Counted from the first letter of the stretch, positions 1 to 9,022 are shown. The stretch: DNA of 64,000 bases from Flavitalea sp. (GCA_035489435.1 DATHKG010000005.1), one strand, 5' to 3'. Translations and numbers: made by a program. Notes: generated from the sequence alone by a model not told the origin.

Positions 1-1505
1 ATCTTATTGCCTCCAGGTGTATCAATGGTGATTGTTTTAGTATCATCTTTAAAACTTATGTGCATTTTACTTCGTGTAGTAAATCCCTTCTCATGATTCG
101 TGTCCTTTGCTTTTATGGGAGCAGGTTTTGCACTACTGTGCAACATTCCCAGTACAACAGCATCACGCGGATCATCATTGATGAATCCAACGATAACCTC
201 ATCGCCTATCTCCGGACGAAAAAAAGCACCGCGATCGGATCCCGCATCGAGGCTTGCAACCCTGGTCCAGATTCCCTGCGCGGTATTATCTATGATCGGG
301 ATTTTTACCAATATCCTGTCTTCACCATCCGGATCATTCTCCAATTGCACCACCTTTCCCGTATGCAATCCATGGATACCGCCGGAAAGTCCAGCGGCAA
401 GTCCATCATTCAAATCGTCGTGCTCAAATACATAACGCGCCGGATCCAAACCGAACTGGATATGTGAATCCCACATTCCGTTACCCATTTCATGTCTAAC
501 AGCAGTAACGAATGCTTTCCCTTTGAAACGATCACCAACTCCTTCGAGAGTAACAAGATCTCCTGGCTTTACTCCAGAAAAACCGGTGAATTTAGCCCGG
601 CCCCGGATCTTCGCCATCCTGCTTCTCAACATCACACTATCCGCCCATTCCTTTAATTCCTGTTCGAGCACATGTCCGCTATGCCGGATCTCAAATTTTT
701 CGAGGTCTATAGTGTTTGCCAGTTCGGTTGCTGTTAAGTTCCCATGCTCACCAAAAGGAGCTTTTGAAGACTCAGCATCAAAAAGATCCTGATTTTTATA
801 GTCCCATGAATAAGCCTGCACATTTTTCCATTGCGTACGCGCATCCATCTCTGCTTCAAATTCCAGAATCGAGGACCCATAATTCAGATTCAGGACGGCG
901 TTAGCGGAACTATCCGGCTTTGCTATTTTAATAACACCATCACTAACGTTCACCAACATACTATTTGCCTCAGCCCGGAGCAACATGAAATCCCAATCGC
1001 TGATATGATGCTGTACCAGTTCTTTATGTTTCGTTTTTGTAGATGACACGTCAGCCTTAAGAGAATACTTCGCATACTTCTTTATCAATTCATCAAAAAC
1101 ATCGCTGTCTTTTACATTTTCGAAATAATGGCTATGACGTCCCACCGCCATCCTGATAGAATCATCCCTGCATTCGATCACCAGTTCGCCATTGCCATTT
1201 TCTTTCACTTTGATCGCATGCTTTATGATGATTCCTTTGAACAGCTGCGCGTTCTCCCCATCAAGACCGATTTTGATCATGATCTTTTTACCCGGAATGA
1301 ATTCGTCTGTATTGCTTAATTCAAAAGTTCTCTCGGATGCTTCGCCATCACGGAAAACGATTCTTGCCGAAGGGATTCGATTGATCTCCTTTGTAACAAG
1401 AATGGATAGAACCTGGTAAGCAGGGCTGACAGCTTTATCATTGATCATGATCGTGTAAGTGACCATGTCATGACGCGAAGTATTTGGTATCAGTAAATCT
1501 CCCAT
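1..1505 (-). CDS. eCIS spike protein, VgrG / gp27-gp5-like (Afp8-like); 3' partial, stop lies beyond window start
   Basis: The given ORF track omits ORFs without an in-window stop, so this was translated by hand. Reverse-complement translation from the ATG at 1505-1503 gives MGDLLIPNTSRHDMVTYTIMINDKAVSPAYQVL... and later ...RPEIGDEVIVGFINDDPRDAVVLGMLHSS..., the OB-fold signature of gp5/VgrG spikes. The ATG overlaps the upstream stop as TAATG (translational coupling). Confidence 0.8.
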   Translation of the reverse strand, partial: MGDLLIPNTSRHDMVTYTIMINDKAVSPAYQVLSILVTKEINRIPSARIVFRDGEASERTFELSNTDEFIPGKKIMIKIGLDGENAQLFKGIIIKHAIKVKENGNGELVIECRDDSIRMAVGRHSHYFENVKDSDVFDELIKKYAKYSLKADVSSTKTKHKELVQHHISDWDFMLLRAEANSMLVNVSDGVIKIAKPDSSANAVLNLNYGSSILEFEAEMDARTQWKNVQAYSWDYKNQDLFDAESSKAPFGEHGNLTATELANTIDLEKFEIRHSGHVLEQELKEWADSVMLRSRMAKIRGRAKFTGFSGVKPGDLVTLEGVGDRFKGKAFVTAVRHEMGNGMWDSHIQFGLDPARYVFEHDDLNDGLAAGLSGGIHGLHTGKVVQLENDPDGEDRILVKIPIIDNTAQGIWTRVASLDAGSDRGAFFRPEIGDEVIVGFINDDPRDAVVLGMLHSSAKPAPIKAKDTNHEKGFTTRSKMHISFKDDTKTITIDTPGGNK

Positions 1506-2245
1506 TATATTTCTTTTTGATCAAAGGGTGGAAAATAGAGATCGCTGCCAGACCTGATCCGCCGAATAGTTGTCAAATGATTTACCTTGCCGACCTGGAG
1601 CAGGTATTTCGGATCGTTATAGATACGGTAAGTCAGGTAATCCAGACGGTCGCCTTCTTTAACCCGCCGGTAATGCGTTAGATCCGGTGAACTGGGTTTA
1701 TCTTCAGCAATCCTTTGTTCCCGCGTTTTATAATCAACAAAAGTGCAACTAAGCTTTGCCCGCAGCGGCTTGCCATCAGGGTTGAACAATGTATAGTTGA
1801 TATCGAGGCTGGACAATACACACCTGAATCGTATTTCAGAGCCCCAAATGAGCAGTAAGAATTTCGGACGATGGATCTTCTTCGACATCTTGTATACACA
1901 GTCCAGGAAATTCTTCAACTGTTGTTCAACAGGCAATACTTCATTGACGATCTTTCTGTCTTCCAGTTTCGCTTCGACATTGACCCGCCGGTATCCTTCC
2001 ATTGTTGCGGTGCCATCGAGAATAAAATCCAGTTTTAATTCTTCAGGTGCAACAGATTTGAACCGTACATCCGTCCCCCGGCCACCGTGCCCTCTCCGAA
2101 CATCCACATCGATCTTGAGGGTCTTGGTGAACGATTCCGGATTGATCGGAGTAACGAATGTAGGTGTCTTCTTATCCAACTCTTCTCCCGGATCTGTAAA
2201 CTCCTTATCCTCGAAGGAATATATCCTTACTTTTTGTAATTCCAT
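1505..2245 (-). CDS. eCIS tube initiator with C-terminal LysM domain (Afp7/Pvc7-like)
   Basis: 246 aa. The N-terminal half is tube-like. The C-terminus HYRRVKEGDRLDYLTYRIYNDPKYLLQVGKVNHL...IRSGSDLYFP fits the LysM pattern. It sits between tube genes and the spike, as in Afp/PVC operons. Confidence 0.7.
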   Translation of the reverse strand: MELQKVRIYSFEDKEFTDPGEELDKKTPTFVTPINPESFTKTLKIDVDVRRGHGGRGTDVRFKSVAPEELKLDFILDGTATMEGYRRVNVEAKLEDRKIVNEVLPVEQQLKNFLDCVYKMSKKIHRPKFLLLIWGSEIRFRCVLSSLDINYTLFNPDGKPLRAKLSCTFVDYKTREQRIAEDKPSSPDLTHYRRVKEGDRLDYLTYRIYNDPKYLLQVGKVNHLTTIRRIRSGSDLYFPPFDQKEI

Positions 2246-2422
2246 TTAGCGTTCGTTTTTATCTTTCAGAATTTCCATAATCCGTTGAATGCATATGTTG
2301 ACAATTTCTTCGTTTGGTGATACTGAGTTATTCTCTGCGCCCGCAGGCGTCGCTCCTCCGGCAGCATCATCCTGAACTACCGTGGCTTTAATAATGAGTT
2401 CACGAATTTCAATAGGCATAGT

Positions 2423-8366: not shown

Positions 8367-8368
8367 GA

Positions 8369-9022
8369 TTAATGATTGTCAGTAATTTTTACAATATTGG
8401 TCGTAACTTCTTCGATAAGAGGAACAATCTTCTGAACGCTTTTATCCGTGATCATTACAAGGCGCATTTTGTACATCGCAAACGGAATCTGTCTTCCACC
8501 CAATGATCCCCACAAGTGATTGATCTGTTCGAACGTCAGCGTATATAGTTCAGCGATAATCTTCAAATTTGCTATTTCCGGCTTGCTGAGGTCGCCCAGG
8601 TCGCCGGGCAGAATCACGGGGGAAGTAGCTGGTGTAAATGTGTTCTTTCCCTGGAAAAACCTGATCACAAGTGAAAGCCTTTTCAGCGCTTGTACATAGG
8701 CGTTATTTGGGGGAACGCCACCTGTAAAATTGGAAGTAAAGAGTACATACAGATTGAGGAATACCGGCCGATTTTCATATCTCGCGGTGCCATCACCGAG
8801 CTTTGTAAACAGATTGCCGTTTTTCAGCGTACTTTCCTCTTCGATGTTTACAACGGAAATCACGAGGCTATTTTCAAGATTCTGCCCTTCGTCTGTATCG
8901 AAGAGACCGATATTCTCGATTACGACATTGGCAGGATCACCTTGTGCTACCATATAGGCAGACAATTCCTCCCGCAATAATATCATTGCGTTTCCAATCA
9001 CTTGTGGTTTTTTAGGAGACAA
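8369..9022 (-). CDS. putative eCIS cap/tail-terminator protein (DUF4255/Pvc16-N-like)
   Basis: 217 aa, first gene of the operon after a 400-bp promoter region. Its small size and position match the DUF4255 gene that commonly precedes the sheath in Bacteroidota and Actinobacteria eCIS loci. The family call is tentative. Confidence 0.45.
   Translation of the reverse strand: MSPKKPQVIGNAMILLREELSAYMVAQGDPANVVIENIGLFDTDEGQNLENSLVISVVNIEEESTLKNGNLFTKLGDGTARYENRPVFLNLYVLFTSNFTGGVPPNNAYVQALKRLSLVIRFFQGKNTFTPATSPVILPGDLGDLSKPEIANLKIIAELYTLTFEQINHLWGSLGGRQIPFAMYKMRLVMITDKSVQKIVPLIEEVTTNIVKITDNH

Follow-up and report, generated by a model that had tools for sequence, protein, structure and literature searches.

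A contractile injection system operon in Flavitalea, related to AlgoCIS and the Anabaena tCIS, with two cysteine-rich proteins encoded between its sheath and tube genes

Contractile injection systems (CIS) are being engineered as protein-delivery devices, and every lineage solved up to now has brought new modules, such as the cap adaptor, the plug, and the cage. Two solved machines are closest to the locus described here: AlgoCIS of Algoriphagus machipongonensis, an extracellular system of subtype Ib (PDB 7adz/7aeb; PMC8894135), and the thylakoid-anchored tCIS of Anabaena sp. PCC 7120, encoded by all3313–all3327 (PDB 7b5h/7b5i; PMC8894136). More distant are the Afp and PVC systems of Serratia and Photorhabdus (PDB 6rao, 6j0n), which are also extracellular CIS (eCIS). 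Genomically, a locus counts as an eCIS operon if it has 10 or more core genes, one or more of them from the set Afp12/13/14/16, and is distinct from phages, T6SS, and pyocins (PMC8213781). Because eCIS operons are very common in Chitinophaga, where they were found in 89% of the genomes (PMC8213781), a locus of this known kind is expected.

The window, by which we mean the whole stretch of 64,000 nucleotides analyzed from Flavitalea sp., a soil member of the Bacteroidota (Chitinophagaceae; GCA_035489435.1 DATHKG010000005.1), carries at positions 1–9001 ten tightly packed, co-directional genes, all on the minus strand. Their order is Cis16A, Cis16B, Cis2, c1, c2, Cis1, Cis5, Cis6, Cis7, and a truncated Cis8, with spacings from a 1-nt overlap up to 53 nt. 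A first-pass annotation of this DNA had recognized the shared direction and the close spacing, but counted nine genes, as it missed the 57-aa DUF5908 gene at 2246–2419. Pfam matches of the array were far beyond chance level, and the sheath, Phage_T4_gp19, DUF4255 (Pvc16_N), and Phage_GPD families that the annotation had proposed to search for were all matched. Three of the ten genes had no Pfam match (4537–5565, 3422–4495, and 7053–8366).

The first gene (8369–9001, 210 aa) encodes Cis16A, an Afp16-like cap or tail terminator (Pvc16_N, 1.4e-28). Its ORF is open back to a TTG at 9022, from which the gene was originally annotated; the probable start codon is the GTG at 9001, because the N-termini of the orthologues read MI..A..LLR.EL. 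It is followed by the cap adaptor Cis16B (7053–8366, 437 aa), a fast-evolving protein with 26–34% identity between related loci. The family profile of Cis16B matched Anabaena All3326 (7b5i_AB, 2e-17) and the AlgoCIS cap adaptor (7adz_1A, 6e-8), and a Foldseek search with its AF2 model (pLDDT 71) returned the same two structures at the top (E 1e-20 and 1e-10, respectively). The contractile sheath Cis2 (5605–6999, 464 aa; Phage_sheath_1C, 9e-14) matched the AlgoCIS sheath (7adz, 7.8e-142), Anabaena All3325 (2e-139), and Afp3 (2e-67), as well as the PHROG family ‘tail sheath’ (1e-45).

Beyond c1 and c2, which are treated below, the array continues with the main inner tube Cis1 (2907–3389, 160 aa; Phage_T4_gp19, 5.8e-42), whose top PDB matches are the Alg1 tube (6e-50) and All3324 (1.5e-49). 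Next to it lies Cis5 (2423–2896, 157 aa; Phage_T4_gp19, 2.9e-36), a tube paralogue of the tube-initiator layer that is closest to Alg5 (7aeb_Y, 1.7e-34) and All3323 (8.7e-34), with Afp5 at 1.6e-15. The overlooked gene encodes the spike plug Cis6 (DUF5908, 1.1e-18); its counterparts Alg6 and Afp6 form a trimeric plug within the spike cavity (PMC8894135). In the tube initiator Cis7 (1505–2245, 246 aa), the sole Pfam domain at E ≤ 0.01 is CIS_tube (residues 2–179, 2.3e-44); the LysM domain named in the first-pass annotation was not among the Pfam calls, and the C-terminal ~65 aa without a call occupy the position of the LysM domain of Alg7 (PMC8894135). Finally, the VgrG-like spike Cis8 (1–1505; Phage_base_V, 1.6e-19, and Phage_GPD, 2.9e-07) runs off the window edge after its N-terminal 501 of 592 codons.

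The continuation of the operon is found on a public contig that is 100% identical to window positions 1–6810 (6810 bp). It holds the complete 592-aa Cis8 (contig positions 5306–7084), in agreement with the earlier view that the last gene is cut by the window edge. Downstream of the spike gene come PAAR (Cis10, 2.5e-24), GPW_gp25 (Cis9, 1.4e-22), and the gp6-like and gp7-like baseplate proteins Cis11 and Cis12, so the PAAR and baseplate genes anticipated beyond position 1 are indeed there. Cis11 (1496 aa) matched All3317 at 1e-141 and Alg11 at 1e-98, and Cis12 (2221 aa on this contig, which ends inside the gene) matched All3315 at 4e-128 and Alg12 at 9e-85. On the contig, Cis11 stops at 12389 and Cis12 starts at 12397, with zero genes between them. 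As Cis8 to Cis12 alone add ~17.5 kb, and related loci extend for a further 9–11 kb, the 9 kb seen in the window are nearer a quarter of the operon than the upstream half they had been taken for.

Across relatives, the order 16A-16B-2-c1-c2-1-5-6-7-8-10-9-11-12 was kept in all 37 species-level loci as far as their contigs reach, always with c1 and c2 between sheath and tube, and the identical order was also present in the loci L002, L003, L004, L042, and L099. The flanks of these loci are unrelated to each other and contain housekeeping genes. Directly after Cis12, a CIS tape-measure gene (CIS_TMP, 1e-112) was found in L002, L042, and L099, as well as in two sister-type operons from the Chitinophagaceae, those of Niastella vici (LVYD01000060.1, L043) and of a JGI locus (Ga0597485_0023, L098). 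Further downstream, relatives encode eCIS_core/DUF4157 proteins, one of which is a fusion with a GH-E nuclease toxin domain. In metagenomic loci whose Cis12 has ~2200 aa, an AAA+ ATPase gene follows the tape measure at a distance of 7–9.5 kb, and in the Niastella-type operon it is terminal; none was seen within the 4.5–6 kb after the tape measure in L002 and L042, which carry c1 and c2. From these relatives, we infer that the Flavitalea operon likewise continues with a tape measure, cargo, and an ATPase.

Taken together, the window and the contig contain 11 eCIS core genes, which places the locus within the genomic definition of an eCIS operon (PMC8213781). These comprise tube (Afp1/Afp5) and sheath (Afp2) genes, represented by two Phage_T4_gp19 proteins and Phage_sheath_1C; the eCIS-specific Afp16-type cap (DUF4255/Pvc16_N); and the Afp7–Afp12 baseplate and spike set, of which CIS_tube and Phage_base_V/GPD are in the window and the remainder on the contig. 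The bipartite Cis16A/Cis16B cap, the Cis6 plug, and the enlarged Cis11 and Cis12 are traits of the AlgoCIS/tCIS lineage. With AlgoCIS, the locus shares a cap made of a short, Pvc16_N-only Cis16A plus Cis16B, a single sheath gene, the Cis1/Cis5 tubes, a DUF5908 plug, Cis7, VgrG, PAAR, gp25, and enlarged Cis11 and Cis12, and the DUF4157 cargo genes of its relatives resemble Cgo1/Cgo2. The sizes differ, however, with 1496 versus 1050 aa for Cis11, 2221 versus 933 aa for Cis12, and 464 versus 692 aa for the sheath in Flavitalea and AlgoCIS, respectively, and the Ig-like fibre Alg19 was not recognized in the Flavitalea locus. The Anabaena tCIS gives the best or equal-best match for the sheath, Cis11, Cis12, and Cis16B, and has the same order (16A-16B-2-1-5-6-7-8-10-9-11-…-12-…-14). 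In contrast to it, the Flavitalea locus lacks the Cis13 transmembrane fibre gene, has c1 and c2 inserted between sheath and tube, and comes from a host without thylakoids; in addition, an AAA+ ATPase gene closes the related loci, whereas the listing of all3313–all3327 names none (PMC8894136).

The Afp/PVC systems share the core parts Afp1, 2, 5, 6, 7, 8, 9, 10, 11, 12, and 16, albeit with weaker matches (Afp3, 2e-67; Afp1, 6e-15; Afp5, 2e-15; Afp11, 3e-12; Afp12, 1e-13). Behind the first sheath gene, they carry the sheath paralogues Afp3/Afp4, whereas Flavitalea has the unrelated c1 and c2 at this place. Afp16 is the last structural gene in the Afp numbering, whereas the Flavitalea cap gene comes first, and the Afp/PVC cap is one longer protein of 293–295 aa (PMC8894135).

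The only part of the locus that is not routine is formed by c1 (4537–5565, 342 aa) and c2 (3422–4495, 357 aa), two cysteine-rich proteins that the first-pass annotation had not singled out. They contain 20 (5.8%) and 26 (7.3%) cysteines, as compared with 0–0.8% in the other CIS proteins and 3.3% in PAAR. Searches of Pfam, PDB, and PHROG with c1 gave nothing above noise, and c2 had no match in the same three databases. Among 1.84 billion sequences, c1 has 107 representative homologues. Of its cysteines, 16 are conserved in 85% or more of 34 loci; the protein also has a motif, DV.GIQ.FSN. For c2, we found 264 homologues, every one labelled ‘hypothetical’ and from Chitinophagaceae-type genomes, and a Flavitalea sp. 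protein is 100% identical to it; c2 has 17 conserved cysteines, including CC-x9-C-xx-CC, and is a predicted coiled coil with helices at residues 37–149, 161–200, and 303–350 in its AF2 model (pLDDT 76), for which there was no significant fold match in PDB or BFVD. The two proteins are not detectably related to each other (hhalign probability 4%). In every locus compared, c1 directly follows the sheath gene and c2 directly precedes the tube gene. Across most of the 37 loci, identity is 46–59% for c1 and 41–55% for c2 (32% in the outlier L038), as compared with 58–78% for the sheath and 26–34% for Cis16B; this is about the conservation of the tube initiator Cis7, the plug Cis6, and the baseplate protein Cis11, and the lengths of c1 and c2 are kept.

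The best single explanation for these data, to which we assign a probability of about 0.9, is that positions 1–9001 are the 5′ end of a chromosomal Flavitalea CIS operon of the AlgoCIS/Anabaena-tCIS lineage, with a mechanism deduced by homology and with c1 and c2 most likely serving in structure or assembly. By analogy to the solved systems, the baseplate would form first around the Cis8 spike, tipped by the PAAR protein Cis10, together with the plug Cis6, Cis7, Cis5, and the sheath initiator Cis9, while the very large Cis11 and Cis12 would provide the baseplate wedges. The Cis1 tube would then grow on the baseplate along the tape-measure protein, the Cis2 sheath would assemble round it in a high-energy extended state, and the distal end would be closed by the two-part Cis16A–Cis16B cap. 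DUF4157-tagged cargo encoded by 3′-end genes may enter the tube, with the terminal AAA+ ATPase probably assisting in the loading. A trigger at the baseplate would then cause the sheath to contract and drive tube, spike, and cargo through the target membrane.

While the term contractile injection system is firm, extracellular is only what we infer, as are release into the medium and the target, because the closest solved machines are the extracellular AlgoCIS and the thylakoid-anchored CIS of Anabaena. That the genes belong to a myovirus prophage, as its tail module, or to an R-type tailocin is very improbable: sheath, gp19-type tube, gp25, VgrG/gp27-gp5, and gp6-like proteins are common to contractile phage tails, and the sheath matches PHROG tail-sheath families, but PHROG gave no match for Cis16A, Cis16B, c1, c2, Cis6, and Cis7, the CIS-specific Pvc16_N, CIS_tube, and DUF5908 families are present here (and CIS_TMP and eCIS_core in relatives), and a related tape measure gave zero matches to viral contigs. 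Moreover, synteny is kept across at least 37 species despite differing flanks. Among ORFs of at least 120 aa in the 64-kb window, and on the contig, no match to a capsid, portal, terminase, or integrase family turned up, nor did a tRNA in the window; with the 8.5 kb of extension included, head genes and tRNAs were likewise not found. This bears out the first-pass annotation, which had seen no such genes in the visible part and favored an eCIS/tailocin-type particle over a prophage. A canonical T6SS was rejected as well, given the single phage-type sheath gene and no TssB/TssC, TssJLM, or ClpV families among the scanned window ORFs. A more serious alternative, although we consider it doubtful, is that the system is kept in the producer, either membrane-anchored, as in the Amoebophilus T6SS-iv and Anabaena, or unattached within the cytoplasm, like Streptomyces CIS-Sc, and acts on contact or on cell death. 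The Anabaena matches to sheath, Cis11, Cis12, and Cis16B given above, equal to or better than those to AlgoCIS, point this way, as does the gene order shared with all3327–all3313, which are listed without an ATPase (PMC8894136), and close relatives in clade Ib mix eCIS and T6SS-like modes (PMC8894135). On the other hand, the transmembrane helix of the tCIS anchor Cis13 has been reported only in filamentous cyanobacteria (PMC8894136), the Cis13 fibre gene is absent between Cis11 and Cis12, and no Kyte–Doolittle window exceeded 1.6 in Cis11, the first 970 aa of Cis12, c1, c2, or Cis16B. With no such gene and no hydrophobic segment in the proteins scanned, the locus lacks the mark of a thylakoid- or membrane-anchored tCIS, and the Chitinophagaceae have no thylakoids. 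A tail fibre is the usual mark of target binding by released particles; no Afp13-like tail-fibre gene was recognizable here, which again favors retention in the producer, whereas the DUF4157 cargo and GH-E nuclease toxin of the relatives fit delivery into other cells, and the heavy cysteine content of c1 and c2 would suit an oxidising extracellular milieu.

A further question is whether c1 and c2, instead of being structural parts, could be cargo or factors in the tube lumen that help to load it. Searches returned no homologue for them, either enzymatic or structural, the elongated helical c2 of the prediction could fit a lumen of ~4 nm, and in AlgoCIS the lumen is filled by cargo (PMC8894135). 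Known and predicted eCIS cargo, however, comes from genes at the 3′ end, varies, and frequently carries a DUF4157 tag (PMC8213781, PMC8894135), and separate DUF4157 cargo genes already exist in the relatives; with their place between the sheath and tube genes in all 37 loci, their constant length, and a conservation similar to that of Cis7, Cis6, and Cis11, c1 and c2 are less likely to be variable cargo, and we regard such a role as unlikely. Judging from the fixed slot, the structural-level conservation, and the elongated helices predicted for c2, the two proteins most likely serve in structure or assembly in this lineage. The AlgoCIS paper, with its 18 genes, does not describe proteins like c1 and c2, and the word ‘cysteine’ appears nowhere in its main text (PMC8894135).

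The Niastella-type operons share the order from tube to Cis12 with the Flavitalea locus, encode proteins 44–69% identical to those of the window, and, besides a tape measure and the terminal AAA+ ATPase, carry a gene for a giant DUF4157 protein and a gene of 111 aa, but they lack c1 and c2, so that the tube gene comes straight after the sheath gene, and their Cis12 has 1604–1624 aa instead of ~2200 aa. Cis12 length tracks c1 and c2, being ~2200 aa in six of six positive loci and 1604–1624 aa in two of two negative ones. If their role is structural, c1 and c2 could form a disulfide- or metal-stabilized strut or fibre that works with the enlarged Cis12. The specific proposal that they are an undescribed, Chitinophagaceae-specific CIS module, a coiled-coil strut or fibre that is linked through its ~33 conserved cysteines, by disulfides or metal clusters, with itself and possibly with the ~600-aa Cis12 extension, with redox-dependent particle stability or firing, is one we put forward tentatively. 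There is a precedent in the myophage Pam3, where disulfide-attached helical fibres control the contractile tail (PMC9942802). As possible disulfide partners, we found no lineage-specific conserved cysteines in sheath, tube, cap, spike, or gp25. Should c1 and c2 prove to be parts of the particle, they would represent a new and possibly redox-sensitive structural element and, as such, a natural handle for stabilizing or retargeting particles. This is directly testable, as c1 and c2 are carried by the cultured Chitinophaga silvisoli K20C18050901 and Chitinophaga sp. 212800010-3.

In all related loci, the operon opens with Cis16A, and the genes upstream of it are unrelated among the relatives. In Flavitalea, it is preceded by a non-coding leader and putative promoter region (9002–9426, minus strand), with no minus-strand ORF upstream. 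Within this leader, a consensus scan alone called a putative stem-loop followed by a T-run at 9052–9034.

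The minus-strand genes at the left end of the window form an array that, by ORF listing and translation, runs without a break from 9022 down to 1, with intergenic distances from a 1-nt overlap up to 53 nt. Pfam searches identified Pvc16_N (8369-9022, 1.4e-28), Phage_sheath_1C (5605-6999, 9e-14), two copies of Phage_T4_gp19 (2907-3389, 5.8e-42; 2423-2896, 2.9e-36), CIS_tube (1505-2245, 2.3e-44) and, in an ORF cut by the window edge (1-1505), Phage_base_V together with Phage_GPD. Three ORFs (7053-8366, 4537-5565 and 3422-4495) carried no Pfam family. The array and its families confirmed the operon that the first-pass annotation had placed at 1-9022, with small corrections. 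There are ten genes rather than nine, as a 57-aa DUF5908 protein (2246-2419) had been overlooked, and the first gene should start at GTG 9001 instead of TTG 9022, because the N-termini of its orthologues place the start there. Given the many independent strong matches and the conserved synteny, we assign the locus to the contractile injection systems (CIS) with a probability of about 0.97. An extracellular CIS (eCIS) or tailocin-type particle had been preferred over a prophage. None of the ORFs of 120 aa or more in the window belongs to a family of capsid, portal, terminase or integrase proteins, and the reading as a prophage or tailocin fails on the tests run.

Comparison with characterised systems allowed most components to be named. 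A profile of the 437-aa protein (7053-8366), built with its seven homologues, matched the cap-complex chain All3326 of the thylakoid-anchored CIS of Anabaena (tCIS; 2e-17) and the cap adaptor of AlgoCIS, the extracellular CIS of Algoriphagus machipongonensis (6e-8). The only strong Foldseek matches of its AlphaFold model (pLDDT 71) were these two chains, All3326 and the AlgoCIS cap adaptor, and the protein is the cap adaptor Cis16B. The two tube paralogues are Cis1, the main tube (6e-50 to Alg1), and Cis5, the initiator layer (1.7e-34 to Alg5 and 1.6e-15 to Afp5). For the sheath, AlgoCIS (7.8e-142) and tCIS (2e-139) were the closest systems, with Afp/PVC trailing far behind. The Anabaena cluster all3327-all3313 has the same gene order, Cis16A-16B-2-...-1-5-6-7-8-10-9-11-12 (PMC8894136), and the described parts of AlgoCIS (PMC8894135) are shared with the window locus.

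Between the sheath and tube genes lie two cysteine-rich genes, c1 (4537-5565; 342 aa, 20 Cys) and c2 (3422-4495; 357 aa, 26 Cys). The idea that they are paralogues was rejected, as BLASTP was non-significant (the top HSP scored 21.6 bits across 28 residues, with a pairwise E of 0.028) and hhalign gave a probability of 4%. Neither protein matched Pfam beyond sub-threshold coiled-coil noise, nor was there a significant match in PHROGs or, by sequence and profile searches, in the PDB. The c2 model (pLDDT 76) has long helices at residues 37-149, 161-200 and 303-350, with a disordered cysteine-rich N-terminus and disorder at 253-281, and Foldseek returned no significant match to it in the PDB or BFVD. 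For c1, 107 representative homologues were found among 1.84 billion proteins; the 264 homologues of c2, none of them named, come from Chitinophagaceae-type genomes, and the sequence of c2 is 100% identical to a hypothetical protein from Flavitalea sp., a genus of the Chitinophagaceae.

A pattern scan with one genome per species recovered 37 loci, including one in cultured Chitinophaga silvisoli K20C18050901, and both genes occupied the same slot wherever the contig covered it. In one locus (L021, 10118-14460) an insertion of ~3.3 kb separates c2 from the tube gene Cis1; adjacency is otherwise invariant. Across most of these loci, identity to the window proteins was 46-59% for c1 and 41-55% for c2, with a single c2 outlier at 32% (L038). 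These values fall short of the sheath (58-78%), are similar to those for Cis7, Cis6 and Cis11 (41-71%) and exceed those for Cis16B (26-34%) by a wide margin. Sixteen cysteine positions of c1 and 17 of c2 are kept in 85% or more of the loci, while the cysteine content of the other CIS proteins is 0-0.8% (PAAR, 3.3%). We also looked for lineage-specific conserved cysteines that might serve as disulfide partners in the cap, sheath, tubes, Cis7, Cis8, gp25 and PAAR and found none; the few conserved cysteines of these proteins also occur in the outgroup that lacks c1 and c2. More distant pairs, with 23-32% identity and 13-18 cysteines, are found at this position in the Chitinophaga-like contig L096 and in L097. 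In a sister lineage within the family, represented by Niastella vici (L043) and L098, the sheath gene is followed directly by the tube gene, and Cis12 measures just 1604-1624 aa, compared with ~2190-2230 aa in all six c1/c2-positive loci of known Cis12 length.

The genes beyond position 1 were recovered from a public Logan contig (L001), which encodes the 246-aa protein of the array, is identical to window positions 1-6810 (100% across 6810 bp) and reaches 8.5 kb farther left. Baseplate and PAAR genes had been predicted there, and exactly this set was present: the spike gene is complete (592 aa) and is accompanied by PAAR (2.5e-24), gp25 (1.4e-22), a 1496-aa Cis11 (1.2e-141 to All3317 and 1.2e-98 to Alg11) and, cut at the locus end, a 2221-aa Cis12 (3.6e-128 to All3315 and 9e-85 to Alg12). 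A scan of a genome-contig collection that lacks the source species, with Cis11 as the only query, gave no relative, and a homologue search with the Cis12 fragment returned no match above 57% identity, the full-length protein itself not being among the results.

Farther downstream, the arrangement was read from relatives. In three c1/c2-positive loci (L002, L042 and L099), Cis12 is annotated as two pieces adding up to 2203-2225 aa, the second of which, in L002, has matches at the C-terminal end of both All3315 and Alg12. Directly after it come CIS_TMP (1.2e-112) and then eCIS_core/DUF4157 proteins, one of which carries a fused GH-E nuclease toxin domain. When metagenomes were scanned with the tape measure as anchor, loci with a ~6.6-kb Cis12 proved to have an AAA+ gene 7-9.5 kb past it. 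The gene product was 51-67% identical to the Cis15-like ATPase of Niastella in five of six such loci; the sixth match (L072), at 41%, is truncated where the locus ends. From these relatives we infer that the window genome would have the same arrangement in an operon of ~36-40 kb, of which the window covers approximately the first quarter and not half, as had been proposed. In the same three loci the giant baseplate genes, and at times the spike and tape-measure genes, are annotated as at least two consecutive ORFs whose lengths add up to the intact size (for Cis12, 1427+776, 865+1360 and 1293+912 aa, for example). The contigs are long ones from ENA metagenomes, and the divided ORFs are most likely frameshift errors of long-read assembly and not true gene splits. 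Past the tape-measure and DUF4157 genes, L042 also encodes a 222-aa protein (21730-22398) with a weak match to PF03692, a putative Zn/Fe-chelating domain of CxxCxxCC type, and no homologue of it was present in the other metagenomic loci scanned.

As to what c1 and c2 do, we favour a structural or assembly role, to which we give about an even chance. Their fixed slot among structural genes, constant length and conservation resembling that of structural proteins argue for it, as do their strict co-occurrence and link to the Cis12 expansion. That they are cargo seems unlikely, and some other function would account for the remainder. If structural, they might by analogy provide a disulfide or metal clamp, and here the myophage Pam3, with its disulfide-attached helical fibres, offers the sole precedent (PMC9942802). 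Searches of the accessible literature, the AlgoCIS and tCIS papers included, turned up no cysteine-rich component described for any CIS and no described Chitinophagaceae CIS variant; by that measure, c1 and c2 with the long Cis12 are an undescribed variant feature within a familiar system. The architecture merits experiment, while the system as a whole is no surprise. A published survey (PMC8213781) reports eCIS operons, frequently more than one per genome, in 89% of the Chitinophaga genomes sequenced. With 11 core genes, Afp12 and Afp16 included, the locus falls under the operational definition of that study and is therefore a further member of this known kind.

Two features speak against release of the particles from the cell: the proteins are close in sequence to those of tCIS, and no fibre gene was recognised. 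In favour of release, relatives carry DUF4157 and nuclease cargo, there is no Cis13-type membrane anchor gene between Cis11 and Cis12, and no hydrophobic segment was found in Cis11, the Cis12 fragment, c1, c2 or Cis16B; the very high cysteine content, by inference only, also points outward. On balance, an extracellular mode seems somewhat more likely than not.

Upstream of the operon, ~33 nt before the likely Cis16A start, there is a GC-rich stem-loop of 8 bp with a T-rich run after it (9052-9034, minus strand). It could serve as a leader element or terminate something further upstream; scans for sigma-70 promoter and terminator consensus did not exceed shuffled expectation. In a Ferruginibacter relative (L003, 4155-5288), an ECF-type sigma-70 factor and an 81-aa ORF directly precede the CIS operon, whereas the window has a different upstream neighbour and no equivalent of either. 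Here, three abutting short ORFs in different frames (9427-10309, plus strand; 94, 82 and 133 aa) resemble a frameshifted gene remnant. The first contains the motif FINYRRDD, which recalls TIR N-termini, but neither Pfam nor a comparison with the TIR protein encoded elsewhere in the window supported a TIR-like remnant. The next gene (10881-16265, plus strand) runs divergently from the operon and encodes a 1794-aa protein with DUF7379, an LCAT/PGAP1-like lipase, a CHAT (caspase-like) protease and a TPR-S sensor. We found no support for it as a CIS effector: it is on the opposite strand, is not found beside related CIS loci and has no DUF4157. PADLOC gave no match for it or the other neighbours. 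Beyond it, a minus-strand cluster (16397-27633) comprises genes for PspA/IM30 (26812-27633), a YqiJ_N-like membrane protein (26020-26700), a 680-aa protein without a Pfam match (23782-25824), a 1730-aa DUF3686+DUF7902+AAA ATPase (18312-23504) and a 444-aa pentapeptide-repeat protein (16397-17731). With its giant ATPase, this cluster may act as a module for membrane stress or remodelling; the 1730-aa protein, belonging to it, was rejected as the CIS ATPase.

All of the window outside the operon (55 kb), the genes just described included, is ordinary chromosome of this member of the Chitinophagaceae, with AraC/HTH regulators and TIR, LuxR-type, HipA and hybrid sensor kinase genes. A viral-contig scan with a related tape measure and tRNA and Rfam scans of the window gave no match. 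The chromosomal setting was confirmed by a polysaccharide-utilisation locus (30076-49439, plus strand) encoding a SusC-like TonB receptor, SusD, GH39, an amidohydrolase, a Zn-dehydrogenase, an enolase-superfamily enzyme, an RraA-like aldolase, a PIG-L deacetylase, an SSF symporter and an alpha-L-rhamnosidase. It is followed by genes for a 537-aa protein without a Pfam match and, immediately after, a 188-aa TIR_2 protein (3.9e-13), a pair (49707-51892, plus strand) that may form a two-gene defence module. Finally, a HipA_C kinase-type toxin gene (57055-57993, minus strand; 4.1e-44) adjoins a gene for a PLP-dependent enzyme.
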